NCBI GenBank assembly: GCA_023248265.1
Contig: JAHFEZ010000003.1
Location: forward strand, 1-41,696
DNA length: 41,696 nt
Direction: 5' to 3'
DNA from: Deltaproteobacteria bacterium
Lineage (GTDB): Bacteria; Bdellovibrionota; JACOXK01; 2-02-FULL-40-11
Shown: positions 5,285 through 31,429 of the stretch, in pieces
Layout of the letters: every line of letters starts with the position of its first letter
Position numbering within the stretch: the stretch's first letter is position 1
Notes under the pieces: model-generated
Told to the model about the DNA's origin: nothing
Database searches by the model: none
Seen by the model: only the letters and a program-made list of their open reading frames with translations
Made by a program: the position numbers and the translations under genes

Positions 5285-5356
5285 TGCGCCTAGGTGGATT
5301 CGAACCACCATTTTAAGCTTCGGAGGCTTATGCTCTATCCATTGAACTATAGGCGC
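5285..5356 (-). tRNA. tRNA-Arg (anticodon CCG)
   Basis: Cloverleaf read by hand. Acceptor GCGCCTA/TAGGCGC, D arm GTTC-AATGGATA-GAGC, anticodon arm TAAGC-CTCCGAA-GCTTA, T arm GGTGG-TTCGAAT-CCACC, discriminator A. No encoded CCA. Confidence 0.9.
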
Positions 5357-12641: not shown

Positions 12642-14340
12642 GCGACTTAACCCACGCTTCCACCATTTCTTTAAGGGTTAACAAAGGTACAGGGCCACTG
12701 AGCAGCACTAAGTCATGAAATTTTCGAATATCAAACTTATTCTTTAATTTCTTTTTGGCCTCCTCTCGCAAATCATAAATAGCTCGTTGCCCAACCTTAT
12801 AGGCCAACGCCTGCCCCGGCCACACAATATAGCGATCAATTTCATTGTTCATTTCCATCTCATTGGCCGTGCGTGTTTCTTTCATAAAATTAAGCGCTTT
12901 CTCCCTTGACCATCCAAAATAATGAATTCCCGTATCCACCACCAATCGAATCGCACGCCAGGCCTGATCCATCAGCATCCCTACCCGTTGAAGTTCAGAA
13001 GAATATGCCCCCATTTCATCCGCCAAGCGTTCGGTATAATGTGCCCATCCTTCAATGTAGGCCGTAAATCCCAAATGCTTTTGAAATTTAGGAATATCTT
13101 TTTGTTCAGTTGCAAGAGCAATTTGAAGATGATGCCCAGGAATGGCCTCATGATAGGCCAAGGTCTCCATTGAATAATTCGCCCATTCTTGAGGTTTTAA
13201 GGTATTCATCCAAAATATGCCCGGACGGCTCCCATCTTCGGTAGGAGGATAATAATAGGCCGCAGGAGCTGAAGCCGCTTTAAGCTTATCCATCGCTTTG
13301 ACTTCGAATGGAATCGTTGGAAGTGTTCCAAAGTAACGAGGCAGAAATGTTTTCATTCGATTGAGAGCCATAGTGTGCCCCTCCATGAGCTGCTCAGAGG
13401 TCTCGTAATAATTAGAACGATCTGTCTTAATTTTTTCTAGAAAACTTTTGACATCCCCCTGATGACCTAATTTTTGCGCAATCGCTAAAATTTCTTCTTT
13501 ATTTTTTTGGAGTTCGTCTAATCCAATTTGATGAAGTTCTTCTGGAGTTTTATCTGTCGTTGTATGAGCCCTCACCCGAAAAGCATAATTTTCACGCCCT
13601 TGAGGGATGGCAGAAACTCCCACTTCTTTACGTGCACGATCTTTATATTCTGTCTGCAAAAATTTTAACAACTTTTCATAGGCCGGAACAACAGTGGCAC
13701 GAATTGTTTTTTCAAACACCCCTGAGTATTTCTGCTGATCTTTTTTAGAAAAACTTGCTGGAAATCTCTTAAGAGGTTCCGAAAAACGAGTTTCTAAAGG
13801 ATTCATTTGGACAAATTTTTGAAGCTGATCCACCACACGGTCATACGCCACATACGGAGCTACCCGTCCTGATTTTAATCCATCTCTTAAATCCCCCAGA
13901 TATTGATCCATGTATTTTGGAATCGATTTATATCGCTTGAGTAAATCATCATAATTTTTCTTTGTTTTGAGAGGATGAATATCTAACAAATCCATCAACT
14001 GAATATGAGGGCCACTCAATTGATCTAAGTTCCATTCCCAATCTTTAAATTTTTGAGACTCCATATATTCTTTCAACTTGAGCTCTAAAATTCGATAGGT
14101 CACTTTTTCTCTCTGAGTCAACTTTGCCAGATTTATTTTTTTGAGCCGTTTTAAAAACGCCTGATTTGCTGCCACCTGTTTTTTACGGGGCTGATGACCA
14201 AATTCCTCTAACCGTCCATTATATCGTGGATCCCCTAAAAACGTCGCCCATGTGGGACATGTTTTTAATACAAATTCCCAATAGTCTTTTCCAAGCTTAT
14301 CTAATTCTTGAGATATTGTTTTCTTTACTTTAGATACCAT
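12634..14340 (-). CDS. DUF885-family protein (metallopeptidase-like)
   Basis: 568-aa ORF. HEAIPGHHLQ motif and the DUF885 overall pattern. 8-nt overlap with mscS, and 2 nt after arfB. Confidence 0.8.
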   Translation of the reverse strand: MVSKVKKTISQELDKLGKDYWEFVLKTCPTWATFLGDPRYNGRLEEFGHQPRKKQVAANQAFLKRLKKINLAKLTQREKVTYRILELKLKEYMESQKFKDWEWNLDQLSGPHIQLMDLLDIHPLKTKKNYDDLLKRYKSIPKYMDQYLGDLRDGLKSGRVAPYVAYDRVVDQLQKFVQMNPLETRFSEPLKRFPASFSKKDQQKYSGVFEKTIRATVVPAYEKLLKFLQTEYKDRARKEVGVSAIPQGRENYAFRVRAHTTTDKTPEELHQIGLDELQKNKEEILAIAQKLGHQGDVKSFLEKIKTDRSNYYETSEQLMEGHTMALNRMKTFLPRYFGTLPTIPFEVKAMDKLKAASAPAAYYYPPTEDGSRPGIFWMNTLKPQEWANYSMETLAYHEAIPGHHLQIALATEQKDIPKFQKHLGFTAYIEGWAHYTERLADEMGAYSSELQRVGMLMDQAWRAIRLVVDTGIHYFGWSREKALNFMKETRTANEMEMNNEIDRYIVWPGQALAYKVGQRAIYDLREEAKKKLKNKFDIRKFHDLVLLSGPVPLLTLKEMVEAWVKSHE

Positions 14341-14342
14341 AG

Positions 14343-14753
14343 TTATTCCTCCTTGAAATGCACAGACTTTCTAAGCCCCTTTTTTAACGAATGTGCTTTT
14401 TTATTGGCAAGCATTTTTTCTTTGGCTTTTCGCGATCGTCTCTTTTTTTGTTTACGAATGCGATAGATTTCCAATTCTTTTTCAGTTTTTTGTTTTAAAA
14501 TCTGGGCTTCATATTTTTCACATAAAATGCGTCTTGCAAAAAATCTATTCTCAGTTTGGCTTCTAGATATTTGACATTTGACTTCTACGCCTGTGGGCCT
14601 ATGAATCAAACGAACACAACTAGAACTTTTATTGACCTTTTGTCCTCCCGCACCCCCAGATCGAATAAAAGACTCTTCCAGATCTTCTTCTCGAATCCCT
14701 AAATCTTTCATCCGCGCTTCTAGCGCTTTTTCTTTATCTAAAGAAACAGGCAT
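14343..14753 (-). CDS. arfB: ArfB-type ribosome-rescue peptidyl-tRNA hydrolase (RF-1 domain protein)
   Basis: 136-aa ORF. GGQ motif (SGGAGGQKVNKSSS) followed by a strongly basic tail (RKQKKRRSRKAKEK...). Confidence 0.8.
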   Translation of the reverse strand: MPVSLDKEKALEARMKDLGIREEDLEESFIRSGGAGGQKVNKSSSCVRLIHRPTGVEVKCQISRSQTENRFFARRILCEKYEAQILKQKTEKELEIYRIRKQKKRRSRKAKEKMLANKKAHSLKKGLRKSVHFKEE

Positions 14754-14809
14754 TCACTCAACATAAGGAAATTGCTTCCCTAGCGTCAAGGCATTTTTTA
14801 AAAACACGT

Positions 14810-14933
14810 GTAATCCCTCAGTTTTGGGGGAATACTGCGTTCTCAGTCGTCGGGCTCCTCGACGTACATAATAGTACGCCTGCGTCGCCCTCCTCCCTGC
14901 GGACTTGTCTTCCCCTCAAACCTGAGGGATTAC
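14810..14933 (-). repeat. GC-rich nested-palindrome element, copy 1 (candidate structured RNA, terminator or miniature mobile element)
   Basis: Perfect 12-bp closing helix GTAATCCCTCAG/CTGAGGGATTAC, extendable. Its core is homologous to 29093-29218. On the minus strand it is followed by ACGTG+TTTTT. It lies 40 nt after the stop of the 766-aa gene. Confidence 0.85.
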
Positions 14934-14973
14934 AAATCGGATATCCCCCATAACTGAGGCCTTACAAATACGT

Positions 14974-17274
14974 TTAAGGAACAGTGGCCAGTTCTTTAAA
15001 AATAGTAGCGAAAAGACGGACAAGACGAAGGCGATCGCTCCGCGTTTTTTTCTTTGGCAAAAGCACATCAAAAACACTCTCTGGAAATTCTCCTTGTGTC
15101 ACAATATATTCAAACACTTTACGATTTATTTCTTCTTGAGGGACGATCTGTTGCAGCTCCTCCTTAAAAACATGCGGTATACAACTCAAGATTCCAGATA
15201 AAATACTATGATCTTTGGATGCGTTTCCTTTTTGATATTTTTCAATCATGGCTGCTATGATAGGTGAAAAGTGACGATACATGACACTTACTTCCTCTTG
15301 ATTTAAAACACCATCAGAATCTGTATCATAACGAATGAAAAATACTTCTATCAAACGAACAATAGCAAAAATAGATTCTAGCTCTGATGTAGAAATTACC
15401 TGGAGATCTTTCCTTCCCACAATAGCGATAATAGATTCAACATAGCGCTTTAATTCATCGTGAGTAAAAGACTTCATCGCATTTGGGAAATACCATTGAA
15501 GCGTTGGAACTTCTTGTAAAACATCCATCAATCCTTCTCTTTTTAATCCTTTTTCTTCGCTTTGGGGAAATTCAGTATAAAAACTTTCTAACCGAACATC
15601 TCTAAAAAACCATGTGGCTGCCCTAGAATTTTCTAGAACAAAACTGGTTGTTTCTAAAATTTCATACTGATCTAAAGCCTGATCTCCATTGCTGTTATAA
15701 AGCAACTGATCCGAAAGAAGCGTAATAATCCTTCCTAATGAAAGTGTATCTAGAGCCAGAGGGTCTGTCCAAACTTGATGGGCCTCTTTACTTTTTTCTT
15801 GAGACAGTTCTCCTTCTGTCAACAAATCTAATCCCTTCAATAACTTTTGGATGGTTGAAATTAAAGAAGTTAATTCTAATGTCCCAATTTCAGAAAAATC
15901 ACTACCGGCATCGCCAGCAGCATCATACGAATATCTAAGAGACAACTTTCCATCATGGTCTGTATCATAGGCTTGAATGGCGCGATTAACCAACACACGG
16001 GCCACCTGCGTTAATAAAAAATTATTTTTATAAACAAAAGTTCTTTTTTCAAAAGGTGTGGTCCAAAAATAAAGCGTCTTTTGAAAATCTGGGCCTTTTT
16101 GAGAAATCGTAAGAGAATTATCTTGAAAGAACCAAACACCTTGCCCATAAGCCTCAATAGTATCATGAAATACAGATAGGAGCTGTATACTTTCCTCTCG
16201 TCCAAAAGCCTCTAAAGACCCACCAAAAATTTGTTTTTTAAATGCCAAAACAGCATCCACAAAATCTGTTGCTTTGCCATGAACGTGCGCATAAAGAAGC
16301 TCAAGCAATTGAACCAGATCGTTTTTTTGAAGGACAGACTGGTCTGTTTTTAAAAAAAGAGAAAATAAATATTCTAAAAGTTTTTCGTATGAGTTTAAAA
16401 AAAATAAAGTTTCTTGAGGCGTCCAAATGGGCTGCTCTTGTAATAGCTTAATGTCACACACCTGATGATAGACAAATTCAAGATGGGTCAACAAAGCATC
16501 GACTTCTTCTCCTGCCATCACATCTTTTTCATGCCCCAACAAAACATGGTTGGCCAAATAACCTGCTTGAATATACTGAGATCCTATTTCTTCTTCTAAC
16601 TGATCCCACAATTGATATTGCTTAAGAATAAGATCTTTAGGAATCGCATGGGGAATTTTGCCCTCTTTATTTTTCAAAAGCTCTTTAATGATTTGCATAT
16701 ACAAAGAAAACATTTTTTTCCGAAGTTCCCAAAAACGAGCCTGATCTTTTGACACTTTTTGGTATTCAGAAAAAAGAAGGGATAACTGAGGGACAAGGTC
16801 ACCCACACGATGAACTCTGAATAGCATCTCTTTTACTTCTGAAAAACTAATCATGTCATTCGATAGCCCTGACGAAGGTCTCGGCCGAGCACCCAAAAGA
16901 ATATCTCTAAATGAAAAAAGGCGTTCCAGCCAAAGCATCAACCCTTCTGGATTTCCTAAAATATGTGATTGCAGCAATACAGATATCTCTCGCAGGGTAA
17001 GTTGCCCTGTATTTTTTGAAACAATTTTATCAGAAATGGCATCTATGGCTTGAACAGCACATTCAACAACAGAATGAATATCGGAGGATTGAAGTGCTCC
17101 CTGAAGATATTTTTGAGCCATCCCTTCCAAATCTATTTGACACGAAGCGCCCCCCGAAGTTTGGCTTGAGTTAAGCTTGGGTACCTTCATAGGCAAAGGC
17201 TCTTCTCCGTACCACTTCCCACATCCCACACAGGCCAAAAAAAGTCCTAATAATAGCGTAGGCCTAAAATACAT
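14974..17274 (-). CDS. Large probable lipoprotein with two EF-hand-like Ca-binding loops, function unknown
   Basis: 766-aa ORF. Signal peptide with Cys-containing end (LFLACVGCG). DTDHDGKLSLRY is encoded at 15931-15966. The canonical DxDxDGxLxxEE loop DTDSDGVLNQEE is encoded at 15292-15327. Confidence 0.7.
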   Translation of the reverse strand: MYFRPTLLLGLFLACVGCGKWYGEEPLPMKVPKLNSSQTSGGASCQIDLEGMAQKYLQGALQSSDIHSVVECAVQAIDAISDKIVSKNTGQLTLREISVLLQSHILGNPEGLMLWLERLFSFRDILLGARPRPSSGLSNDMISFSEVKEMLFRVHRVGDLVPQLSLLFSEYQKVSKDQARFWELRKKMFSLYMQIIKELLKNKEGKIPHAIPKDLILKQYQLWDQLEEEIGSQYIQAGYLANHVLLGHEKDVMAGEEVDALLTHLEFVYHQVCDIKLLQEQPIWTPQETLFFLNSYEKLLEYLFSLFLKTDQSVLQKNDLVQLLELLYAHVHGKATDFVDAVLAFKKQIFGGSLEAFGREESIQLLSVFHDTIEAYGQGVWFFQDNSLTISQKGPDFQKTLYFWTTPFEKRTFVYKNNFLLTQVARVLVNRAIQAYDTDHDGKLSLRYSYDAAGDAGSDFSEIGTLELTSLISTIQKLLKGLDLLTEGELSQEKSKEAHQVWTDPLALDTLSLGRIITLLSDQLLYNSNGDQALDQYEILETTSFVLENSRAATWFFRDVRLESFYTEFPQSEEKGLKREGLMDVLQEVPTLQWYFPNAMKSFTHDELKRYVESIIAIVGRKDLQVISTSELESIFAIVRLIEVFFIRYDTDSDGVLNQEEVSVMYRHFSPIIAAMIEKYQKGNASKDHSILSGILSCIPHVFKEELQQIVPQEEINRKVFEYIVTQGEFPESVFDVLLPKKKTRSDRLRLVRLFATIFKELATVP

Positions 17275-21245: not shown

Positions 21246-21322
21246 TGGCGCGCCCGGAGGGAATTGAACCCCCAACCCTTTGATCCGAAGTCAAATGCTC
21301 TATCCAATTGAGCTACGGGCGC
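21246..21322 (-). tRNA. tRNA-Arg (anticodon TCG), CCA encoded
   Basis: Cloverleaf read by hand. Acceptor GCGCCCG/CGGGCGC, D arm GCTC-AATTGGATA-GAGC, anticodon arm TTTGA-CTTCGGA-TCAAA, T arm GGGGG-TTCAATT-CCCTC, discriminator G, then CCA. Confidence 0.88.
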
Positions 21323-26622: not shown

Positions 26623-26691
26623 AGAGGCAGAATTGTTCTGGAGCGATCAAATAAAAGCATGCTCGCTCCAGAACAATTCTGCCTCTTTTTT
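26623..26691. terminator. Long perfect hairpin (23-bp stem, 18-nt loop) with a T-run on the plus strand
   Basis: AGAGGCAGAATTGTTCTGGAGCG (26623-26645) pairs perfectly with CGCTCCAGAACAATTCTGCCTCT (26664-26686), then TTTTT. It lies 30 nt downstream of the mpg stop, but mpg is on the minus strand, where no T-run follows. Confidence 0.45.
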
Positions 26692-28464: not shown

Positions 28465-28989
28465 TTATCGCTGAACGAGCTCTACCAAATGCACTTGGCA
28501 CCAGTTCCCACCAATAAGCGCCCAACCAGAACGAAGTTCTTGATAAAGCACATCTCTATTTTTTTCATTGCGATCTACAATCGGATAACATTCGCGTCGA
28601 AGATCTTTGACTTCAGAATCAGATTCAAACATCGTGTAATCCAGAGACTGAGACTCAAGTTCTATGGAGCAACGATATCCCAAAAAATCTCTATCAATTC
28701 CACCTGAAAATAATTCCACCTGGGGTGTTATTTTAATAAGCTTTGGATTAAAACCCACGTGTTTTAAAGACAAATAAAAGAGCTTGGACTCTATATCAGA
28801 AACTGTTTCAGAACATTTTTGTTCAGCCGCAGTTTTTAATTTTAAAACATCCGGATGCTGCGCCCCATACCAACTGCTCTCAACTGTTTGACTATAGGGG
28901 ACCACTGTTACACTATCCCTAACTTGTGCACTCAGAGTTAAACTTCCAGAAAAAAATACCAGAAAAATGAATATTATTTTAGATTTCAT
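28465..28989 (-). CDS. Secreted protein, unknown function
   Basis: 174-aa ORF. GGGAGG RBS. Signal peptide ...LTLSAQV. Confidence 0.6.
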   Translation of the reverse strand: MKSKIIFIFLVFFSGSLTLSAQVRDSVTVVPYSQTVESSWYGAQHPDVLKLKTAAEQKCSETVSDIESKLFYLSLKHVGFNPKLIKITPQVELFSGGIDRDFLGYRCSIELESQSLDYTMFESDSEVKDLRRECYPIVDRNEKNRDVLYQELRSGWALIGGNWCQVHLVELVQR

Positions 28990-29092
28990 ACCAACAATAC
29001 CTCCCTTAAAGTTTCTAACTTCTTATCCATACAAGAGTTAAAATTTTTATCAAGAAAAAAGTTACAGGGCATTTCTATTTACTTGAATTTTG

Positions 29093-29218
29093 GGGCACCT
29101 CTAAAAAGTGCCCAGATGCAAGGCGCCCGAGAAGCGGCGACCGAGGCGTACTTATGCAGTACGTTGAGGGAGACGCGACAAGGGCAACGAAGCAGATGGG
29201 TGCTTTTTAGAGGTGCCC
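29093..29218 (+). repeat. GC-rich nested-palindrome element, copy 2
   Basis: Outer helix GGGCACCTCTAAAAAGTGCCCAGATGC / GCAGATGGGTGCTTTTTAGAGGTGCCC, with two G-U pairs and a 2-nt mismatch. Its core is homologous to the reverse complement of 14810-14933. Followed by TG+TTTTT (29221-29225). Overlaps copA by 12 nt. Confidence 0.85.
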
Positions 29219-31429
29219 TGTTTTTAATCGATTTGCATTCAACACAACGGTGAGAGAACTTAAGGTCATGGCGGCCCCAGCTATCATGGGATTTAATAAA
29301 ATTCCCCAGTGCGGATAGAGAATACCTGCGGCAATAGGGAGACTCAACACATTATACAGAAAAGCACCAAAGAAATTTTGGTAAATATTTCTAATAGTCA
29401 CCTTGGAAATTTGAATAGCTGAAACAATAGGTGTCAGTCCCTCCCCCATCAAAATGACATCTCCACTTTCAATGGCCACATCGGTCCCTCGGCCTATGGC
29501 AAACCCCACATGTGCCCGAGACAAAGAAGGCGCGTCATTCATCCCATCTCCGACCATCCCTACTTTTTCACCCTGCATTTGAAGCTCTCTTATTTTTTGC
29601 TCTTTATCTCCGGGCAAAAGCTCTGAAACCACCTCTTGAATCCCAAGTGTTTGGGCAACACGCTGCGCTACATCGTGACTATCTCCTGTCATTAAGATAA
29701 TCTTAAGTCCCATCTTTTGAAGAGTCTCCACCGTTGCCTTGGCATCTTTCTTAAGGGGATCTGAAACGCTCACCCTTCCAATCACTTTTTCTTCTAAAGC
29801 TAAATACATGGAAGTTTCTCCTGAAGCTGGAGAAGCAAAATCTCCCAAGTCCATATGCACATGACGCATGAGCTTCATATTTCCAAAATAAATATTTTTT
29901 CCTTCAAACATTGCACATACACCTTGGCCTGCTTCAGCATGGAAATTTTGAAGAGACAAAAAATCTAAATTTGTTTCTTTAAATTTGGCAACAATAGCTT
30001 GAGCCAGCGGGTGCTCTGAATGTCGTTCAAGGCTTGCGGCCAACTGCAACACTTTTTGTTCATTAAATTCAAAAGACCCCACGATGCGAGTCACTTCAGG
30101 ACGGCCTTCAGTGACGGTTCCTGTTTTATCCAATACGATTGTGGTGAGTTGTCCTGCTTTTTGAAGGGCTTCTCCATTTCGAATTAAAATACCATGCTCT
30201 GCCGCCTTCCCCACCCCCACCATAATGGAAAGAGGGGTGGCCAGTCCTAGCGCACAGGGACATGCAATAATAAGAACCGTCATCATCGTTACAAAGGCAT
30301 AGGCAATGGATGGCGTAGGCCCAAAGTAAAACCAGACAGAAAAAGTCAAAAGAGCTAGCGCCATCACCACTGGCACAAACACAGAAGAAATCTGGTCTGC
30401 CAATCGCCCTAAATGAGGTTTTGAGCTTTGAGCTGTTTTCACCATCTCCACAATTTGAGCTAACGCTGTTTCTCTTCCTATACGTGTCGCCTTCAATAAA
30501 AAACTCCCACTTTTATTGAGTGTTCCTGCATGAGCTTCTTGCTCCACACTTTTTTCAACGGGCATTGACTCTCCTGTTAGCATCGACTCATCCACCCAGG
30601 AACTGCCTTCGACCACTTTTCCATCGACAGGAATTTTTTCGCCCGGCCGAACGCGTACGATATCTCCCACTTTAACTTGGTCTAGAGGGATATCTGTTTC
30701 TATTAAATTTCTAATCACACGCGCCATCTTGGGCTGAAGCGCCAAAAGTTTTTGAATAGCTTCGCTTGTTTTTCCACGCGCTTTGGCTTCAAGGGCACTG
30801 CCTAAATTCACAAAGGCAATAATCACAACCGCCGCTTCAAAATAAACATGTCGGGCAAACTCCGGAAGAAGCACCGGAAATAAAGAAAGAAGCATCGAAT
30901 ACACCCAGGCCGAGCCTGTCCCTAATGCAATCAATGTATCCATCGTGGCGCTTCGATATTTTAAGGAAGCCCAAAAACCCCTAAAAAACTGTTCTCCAGA
31001 ATAGATCAATACCCCTAAAGATAAAATCCCGACCCCAATCCAAAAGATCTGCCCTCGAGATTCATCGAGATATGGAAGCACATGAAAAAAATCGGCCACC
31101 ATTAAGGGAATACCCACAACAGCAGCCATCGCACTTTTTTTCAAAAGTTTTTTATACTGAAAAGATTCTAAACTTTCTTTTTCTGATTCACTTTCACCAT
31201 TCCCGCATTCTTTGGCCTGATATCCAATGTCGTTCACCACTTTGATCAAAATTTCCGTCGAAACTCCCCCTTGAACGATAGCCGTTCGTTCCACCAAGTT
31301 CACACTGGCTGAGGTTACCCCATGGACTTTGGATAATGCCTTTTCAACTTTTGATACACAACTGGCACACGTCATCCCCGAAATTAAAAATCGCTTAACA
31401 TTAGAATTATTATCAGAATTATTATCCAT
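29207..31429 (-). CDS. copA: Copper-translocating P1B-type ATPase
   Basis: 740-aa ORF. HMA domain [18 protein letters not shown] motif [28 protein letters not shown]. Confidence 0.95.

Follow-up and report, generated by a model that had tools for sequence, protein, structure and literature searches.

The window analysed here, a stretch of 41,696 nucleotides of the Deltaproteobacteria bacterium contig JAHFEZ010000003.1, carries two GC-rich nested palindromes of about 125 bases, and the feature under study, copy 1, is probably one copy of a non-autonomous transposable element resembling a MITE (miniature inverted-repeat transposable element). Copy 1 and copy 2 belong to a multicopy family, whose members show target-site duplications, bear the ends of an IS1380-family insertion sequence (IS) in one subfamily, and differ in presence and absence between syntenic regions of related genomes. 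A preliminary description of this DNA had proposed a dedicated RNA gene. Instead, we found many dispersed copies with conserved termini and target-site duplications, IS1380 ends, random orientation and unrelated neighbours.

Both window copies are long imperfect hairpins, located and oriented as first described. Their RNA minimum free energies are -66.8 kcal/mol (z = -7.75 against dinucleotide shuffles) for copy 1 and -78.8 kcal/mol (z = -10.5) for copy 2, and a covariance model matches each on the named strand. The two copies, whose homologous core had been estimated by eye at roughly two thirds to three quarters identity, show 71% mean column identity when aligned; conservation is confined to a block around the apex, and the sequences of the closing helices share no relationship. 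There are exactly two occurrences of the motif GGCGAC-NN-AGGCGTAC in the window, one per strand and one in each element, in agreement with the identical spacing noticed earlier; the two N positions beside the apex stem vary. At its apex, copy 1 has a stem of 7 bp together with one C-G pair and tandem GA/GA loops. The outer helices of the window copies, which form terminal inverted repeats of 13-23 bp, were also recovered by an independent repeat search of the window. Copy 1 ends in (T)G-TA-ATCCCTCAG ... CTGAGGGAT-TA-C(A). A covariance model search found no third family copy in the window.

An exact-match scan of one genome per species with the pattern GCGACNNAGGCGTAC-N4-9-GTACGYYGAGG placed the core at at least 119 loci, many of them at contig ends. 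Record titles of the matches listed name Geobacter, Trichlorobacter, Oryzomonas, Pelobacter, Desulfuromonadales, Desulfobacteraceae, Syntrophobacteraceae, Syntrophus, Nitrospirota, Acidobacteriota (Terriglobia, Thermoanaerobaculia), Eisenbacteria and others. If the transposon reading holds, the family would range over Desulfobacterota, Acidobacteriota, Nitrospirota, Eisenbacteria and a low-GC groundwater lineage; the taxon labels follow the records of metagenome-assembled genomes (MAGs), where mis-binning of some short contigs is possible. A covariance model, R1, was built from 27 Geobacter/Desulfobacterales copies with the window copies excluded, and it finds both of them: copy 1 with 80.9 bits (E = 7e-20, model positions 1-128) and copy 2 with 70.8 bits (E = 4e-17), the opposite strand of copy 1 scoring only 10 bits. 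In the fetched loci, numbered with L below, the model recovers about 100 copies (97+), some outside the seed pattern, and divergent cores occur among them. Elements are 122-190 nt long, typically about 125 nt, with 46-58% GC and with ends fixed within each subfamily. In some genomes the near-identical copies number in the tens and their ends are fixed; the MAG VGTG01 has more than 20, with CTAG flanks.

An element in L114 shares 88.6% identity with copy 1 over 123 nt, and one in L065 shares 89.9%; both come from groundwater MAGs. Copy 2 is 80.8% identical to L070:7602-7719, and in all these cases the flanks are unrelated. We count this likeness between genomes in favour of a transposable element, as it points to horizontal spread. 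The plasmid collection gave no match to a window copy and contained one family copy, in pGLOV01 of the cultured host Trichlorobacter lovleyi SZ (L122, NC_010815.1 26212-26338, 136 bits). It is full-length and unannotated, and separates a DUF2149 gene from cobN within an operon. The element is antisense to these two genes, and the DUF2149 stop codon falls on its last base. The single match in the viral collection is a core-like string within coding DNA, without the hairpin.

The flanks and surroundings of the copies are those of mobile DNA. Of 59 distinct Geobacter/Desulfobacterales-type copies, 35 are flanked by TNA on either side, and the middle base is the same on the two sides in 30 of them, complementary in 2 and neither in 3. 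Since these flanks are direct and rarely inverted, they represent a 3-bp duplication and not an extension of the inverted repeat. Many copies abut an opposite-strand stop codon, because a duplicated TTA reads TAA. Relative to the nearest open reading frames (ORFs), which were called crudely, the 51 intergenic copies are oriented same/same in 17 cases, opposite/opposite in 15, same/opposite in 10 and opposite/same in 9. The 150 neighbouring ORFs gave 191 Pfam families; no family exceeded five members or was enriched, and no transposase is found among the top 25. The genes between clustered copies are housekeeping genes.

A connection to a known transposase comes from a long subfamily (182 nt in VGTG01, with variants in Acidobacteriota), whose 17-nt ends read TAGCCYGCATTTCTCAC. 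We scanned metagenomes for ends of this type, excluding those followed by the same base as in the 182-nt element. At at least 7 loci the same ends, identical to those of the long subfamily, bound elements of 1.65-1.70 kb, and in two of these a 454-aa ORF encodes an IS1380-family transposase (NF033539, 385 bits; PF13701, 500 bits), homologues of which are carried by at least 24 loci. The flanks take the form Y-TA-[GCC...GGC]-TA-R. Many further short elements of 99-490 nt with other contents have these ends too. Those among L127-L246 (e.g. L147:1-138, L184:2321-2459 and L238:76-302) carry varied cargo, including GTAG-containing REP-like palindromes (GTAGCGCCGGC...GCCGGCG), so that IS1380-ended MITEs seem to collect hairpin modules. 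Only 2 of the 97 further IS1380-ended loci, among the matches listed, hold the conserved module, and it is not present in the full-length IS1380-family IS. The module is therefore cargo and not part of the IS. The centre of about 95 nt is found between at least two unrelated end types with different duplications. A 60-nt mini-hairpin at L119:6752-6811 is made of two Geobacter-type terminal repeats without the central module, and L126:15468-15594 has window-type arms with a reduced core; arms and centre are therefore separable.

Copy 2 can be compared with the syntenic relative L126 (JBFOMO010000008), whose ATPase is 75% identical and with which the window shares the gene order H+-PPase, MFS, ATPase and acyl-CoA dehydrogenase. 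In L126 the gap between the ATPase and dehydrogenase genes is 25 nt and contains no element; a 174-aa ORF that stands beside copy 2 is also missing there. Nucleotide homology between the window and L126 ends exactly at the boundary of copy 2 (...CGATTAAAAACA|GGGCACC). Copy 2 is antisense to both of its neighbours, the P-type heavy-metal ATPase gene and the 174-aa ORF, and takes in the stop codon of the ATPase. On the minus strand, its 3' arm encodes the last three ATPase codons (G-H-L) and the TAA stop (29207-29209), and the C-terminus is altered compared to ...NANRLRTSSLRKD* in L126. The L126 locus is not a clean empty site, because the window has the 174-aa ORF there as well. Conversely, L126 carries two family copies (51 and 35 bits) at sites that have no copy in the window.

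Such elements would be moved in trans by DDE transposases recognising their ends. The long subfamily would use the ends of the IS1380-family IS, while in the best-sampled short subfamily the 3-bp TNA duplications suggest an IS5/IS1031-like enzyme; the target duplication of the IS1031 group reads TNA. The window copies, with their TA-flanked ends, would presumably depend on such a transposase as well. Insertion would occur into A+T-rich TA or TNA sites, which in these genomes are mostly stop codons and intergenic sequence.

The part of the element conserved across phyla is a central module of about 95 nt, which is enclosed by a lineage-specific terminal inverted repeat. From the apex outward, the module begins with the GGCGTAC/GTACGYY stem, which is followed by an NNA/GA loop, a lone C-G pair, the tandem GA/GA loop and a short stem that covaries; beyond these, GA-G-GA faces GA-C-GA, and AAGGCG faces CAACGMAG; the internal loops are mostly GA opposite GA with single G-C pairs between them. 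In 97 model-aligned copies, standard pairs fill 93.1% of the cells compared with 73.4% in shuffles, and 36 of 42 pairs show double-sided changes. The covariation score is 0.42, as against 0.12 in shuffles (0 of 500 reach 0.42) and 0.05-0.09 when partners are slid. Double changes occur at every one of the 20 outer-helix pairs, in line with the proposal that this helix is kept only as base pairing. Given that the alignment on which these fold statistics rest is model-guided, and that inverted transposon ends covary anyway, the numbers demonstrate a conserved hairpin but not necessarily an RNA. RNAalifold on a plain MAFFT alignment returned the apex stem only. Hairpin ends in GC-rich loci were not taken from automatic extension, which over-extended them.

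The fold is also strand-specific, as the preliminary description had argued from the two window copies. With the orientation set by the non-palindromic core, the outer helices contain 186 G:T against 33 A:C mismatches; in 20 lineage representatives, with the apex stem excluded, the counts are 48 and 13 (p = 8e-6). In every one of the 20 lineages the sense strand folds more stably than the antisense strand (means -69.4 and -55.6 kcal/mol), and on both arms purines make up 83-90% of the unpaired positions. The C-G versus U-G difference near the apex of the window copies is real and turns out to be the commonest variation in the family (GU in 65 and GC in 30 of 96 copies). From sequence alone, RNA and single-stranded DNA are indistinguishable here. 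As to the switch suggested earlier, in which the 5' arm folds either locally or with the 3' arm, the local hairpin is significant in the window copies (z = -2.55 and -2.66). However, it is peculiar to these two, as the family mean over 20 lineages is z = -0.07, and a conserved switch is not supported. In keeping with the initial failure to name an RNA family, Rfam 15 gave no relevant match in the window or in 18 related loci, either at the gathering threshold or at E <= 10. Inspected by eye only, the module did not fit the K-turn, CsrA-site, IHF-site or sarcin-ricin-loop consensus.

Several observations weigh against a transposable element. MITEs normally conserve their ends and not their centre, and the present family does the reverse; neither the conserved centre nor the strand asymmetry is explained by a plain cut-and-paste mechanism acting on double-stranded DNA. 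The termini of the window copies have only TA at both ends, which is palindromic and so gives no unambiguous duplication. Moreover, we found no autonomous partner IS for the window-type or TNA-type ends, and no clean pair of empty and filled sites was obtained for copies 1 and 2, their closest relatives differing in gene order. The invariance of the core is in part a matter of construction, since the loci were retrieved by the core pattern.

A possible, though rather doubtful, extension of the transposon reading would account for the conserved centre. The hairpin of about 95 nt may be a portable module, specific to a single strand of RNA or DNA, which was captured repeatedly by MITEs with unrelated ends (IS1380-, TNA- and window-type) in at least four phyla and kept because it is useful to the element or the host. 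As such a selected cargo, it could, for example, support excision or integration via the folded top strand, or render insertions harmless by ending or stabilising transcripts.

The same conserved fold is what a structured non-coding RNA would show, whether a gene or a cis-regulatory element, with its function in the core and its multiplicity reflecting many functional RNA loci. The excess of standard pairs, the double changes, the covariation, the strand specificity and the purine-rich internal loops all speak for it. We nevertheless consider it unlikely, because 15 of the 51 intergenic copies are antisense to both neighbours in a set of random orientation, no gene family is associated with the copies, target-site duplications and IS ends are present, copies within a genome are identical, and copies overlap gene ends. 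Also, no promoter-like site was found ahead of copy 2, and covariation is expected for paired transposon ends too. A riboswitch or other cis-regulatory RNA is not supported, given the random orientation together with the lack of a recurrent class of neighbouring genes. Alternatively, the strand specificity and the conservation of the hairpin itself might reflect a REPIN/REP-like element moved as single-stranded DNA by an HUH enzyme (RAYT or IS200-IS605-type) that recognises the folded top strand, one DNA strand then being the substrate. The GTAG-containing palindromes inside related MITEs with the same IS1380 ends would agree with this, as would the small palindrome formed by each arm of both window copies. 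Yet direct TNA duplications and DDE-type terminal repeats with a cognate IS1380-family IS are not HUH features, the window copies have no GTAG at the foot, and no Y1 transposase occurs among the top 25 neighbour families. Nor are the copies biased with respect to local GC skew (19 versus 29, p = 0.19, in a crude test), and since the skew is negative throughout the window, copies 1 and 2 lie on opposite replication strands. We regard such an enzyme as quite improbable. REPINs conserve their arms and the GTAG foot and make no duplication; a REP/REPIN-RAYT identity was rejected because here the arms vary, the apex is conserved, duplications are present and the foot is missing from the window copies.

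The remaining alternative is that copy 1 simply arose where it stands, behind the envelope operon, as an intrinsic terminator or a hairpin that stabilises mRNA; this takes its appeal from the position of the copy. This copy is in sense orientation to both neighbours and starts 37-40 nt past the gene for a 766-aa protein, as first described, with TTTTT beginning 6 nt beyond its stem and a promoter-like site (TTGACG-18-TATGTT at 14789-14760) following ahead of an arfB-like gene. However, the same 123 nt recur at about 89% identity at unrelated loci in other genomes, copy 1 was not called by a terminator scan, and only 11 of 86 family copies have a run of at least four T within 15 nt downstream, which disposes of a terminator family. 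The T-runs reported after both copies thus stand for copy 1 alone: homology with L126 runs up to the end of the element, so that TGTTTTT past copy 2 is the antisense of the ATPase codons N-R-L-K-T, where L126 reads TGTTCTC. An origin in place is, in our judgement, very improbable. As a local by-product of insertion, the copy 1 hairpin may still form the transcript end of the upstream operon: if co-transcribed with it, a hairpin of -67 kcal/mol with U5 six nt downstream would act as a 3'-end barrier or leaky terminator.

Other identities were also rejected. Integron attC sites carry R''/R' boxes (RYYYAAC ... GTTRRRY) at their ends and form same-orientation arrays separated by cassettes; the present elements end in TAATCCC.../...GGGATTA and GGGGCACC.../...GGTGCCC, and are dispersed in both orientations among housekeeping genes. 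An Arg-rich ORF runs through the Geobacter copies, but on inspection its frame is broken by variation of the apex loop, whose length of 4-9 nt leaves no conserved reading frame.

In its general form, the family resembles several known repeats. ERIC is a MITE of about 127 bp with terminal inverted repeats, duplications and TA flanks (PMC3184786). ERIC/IRU elements of Enterobacteriaceae share with the present family their size, intergenic location in either orientation, terminal inverted repeats, terminal 5'-TA-3' and long transcript hairpin; they differ in their unrelated sequence and in having hosts of other phyla. In addition, the present family joins one centre to ends that are unrelated to each other and shows at least two types of duplication (TNA, and TA inside YTAR); the strand asymmetry was measured for this family. 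Correia/CREE and RUP/BOX/SPRITE are small non-coding palindromic mobile repeats, some of them nested, that can form transcript hairpins or terminator-like structures (PMC3184786; PMC10969869). Those of Neisseria and S. pneumoniae, respectively, are genus-specific and have no described centre conserved across phyla, unlike the present family. The family shares with REP/REPIN sequences the abundance of GC-rich extragenic hairpins and two inverted arms. Members of the IS1031 group (IS5 family) recognise three nucleotides (PMC2516522), and a 3-nt target duplication, from which the link is drawn, is common to IS5-family (IS1031-group)/Tourist-like MITEs and the TNA-type copies. With other IS1380-derived MITEs, the long subfamily has in common that its ends are those of the IS; the window copies have other ends. 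Chunjie of Geobacter uraniireducens is a MITE of the same bacterial family with a very stable hairpin, 178-235 bp long and A+T-rich, with 21-bp terminal inverted repeats and 9-bp duplications (PMC3184786). Its size, composition and duplication exclude identity with the present elements of about 125 nt, 46-58% GC and 3-bp duplications.

On the transposon reading, the repeat family is apparently undescribed so far. No published paper containing the exact core strings was found, the core occurs 0 times among the multicopy sequences catalogued with the genomes of G. metallireducens and G. bemidjiensis, and two MITE reviews make no mention of the family, a broad search of the MITE and taxon literature being uninformative. 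The repeat has practical consequences: it breaks metagenome assemblies at the apex and reshapes the ends of genes, in this window the ATPase C-terminus and stop codon, and screens based on structure would mistake it for a small-RNA gene. What is conserved is the strand-specific central hairpin common to MITEs with unrelated ends, and not the ends to which a transposase binds. This raises the testable question of how such a structure benefits a mobile element.

Table 1. Features of the two window elements, their neighbours and the end types of the family
Feature	Position in window	Strand	Description
Copy 1	14809-14934	-	Complete element, nested hairpin; fold and covariance model match
Copy 2	29092-29219	+	Complete element; fold and covariance model match
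Conserved apex, copy 1	14852-14890	-	GGGC-GA-C-GCA-GGCGTAC-loop-GTACGTC-GA-G-GA-GCCC; exact pattern match, structure, family consensus
Conserved apex, copy 2	29136-29174	+	GGCGAC-CG-AGGCGTAC-TTATGCA-GTACGTTGAGGGAGAC
Putative relic of second, L065-like copy (5' end)	14944-14964	-	21 nt, TAAGGCCTCAGTTATGGGGGA; aligned to L065 element
Upstream neighbour of copy 1	14974-17274	-	766-aa EF-hand protein, lipoprotein-like N-terminus; context, outside element
Downstream neighbour of copy 1	14343-14753	-	136-aa RF-1-domain protein (ArfB-like); context, outside element
P-type heavy-metal ATPase gene	29207-31429	-	3' end remodelled by copy 2
174-aa ORF beside copy 2	28465-28989	-	Signal-peptide-like N-terminus; no Pfam match
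TNA-type ends			TTCCAATTTCAAATC..., TACCAAGGTGCAATC...
Window-type ends			TAATCCCTCAGG, GGGGCACCTCTAAAAAG

The surroundings of copy 1 hold a trace of another element. Directly upstream, 9 nt past the stop codon of the 766-aa gene, lies a 21-nt segment that can be aligned to the L065 element at its 5' end, TAAGGCCTCAGTTAT-AGGGGAAGAC, and is identical in pattern. Judging by this alignment, the segment may be what is left of an older copy after deletion of most of it, or may reflect a nested insertion. The Logan contig L121 (SRR14366766), an independent assembly of the same organism, corresponds to window positions 13454-14844 and stops exactly at the apex of copy 1, which is consistent with a repeat or hairpin halting the assembly.

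Some family copies have themselves been interrupted or multiplied locally. Secondary insertions in the 3' arm or apex are seen in L007:3281-3408, L021:175-325, L070:5950-6077, L071:7217-7418 and L093:2141-2268, one example being a small hairpin, TGTCCTGAGCGAAGTCGAAGGGC, in GAGCC^AACGAAG. Tandem or head-to-head copies lie within a few hundred bases of each other in L034:820-1076, L085:2943-3158 and L071:6020-7418, and this clustering resembles that described for REP/BIME and pneumococcal repeats.

Elsewhere in the window, tRNA genes are located at 5285-5356 and 21249-21322 (minus strand), with Rfam scores of 71 bits each, and one of the family copies in L126 directly adjoins the counterpart of the second. 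A palindrome at 26623-26686, with 27-nt arms that are 96% complementary and a 10-nt loop (AGAGGCAGAATTGTTCTGGAGCGATCA...), sits between two co-directional minus-strand genes. It is unrelated to copies 1 and 2, the covariance model matching its stem geometry only (20 bits), and may be a terminator or another small repeat.

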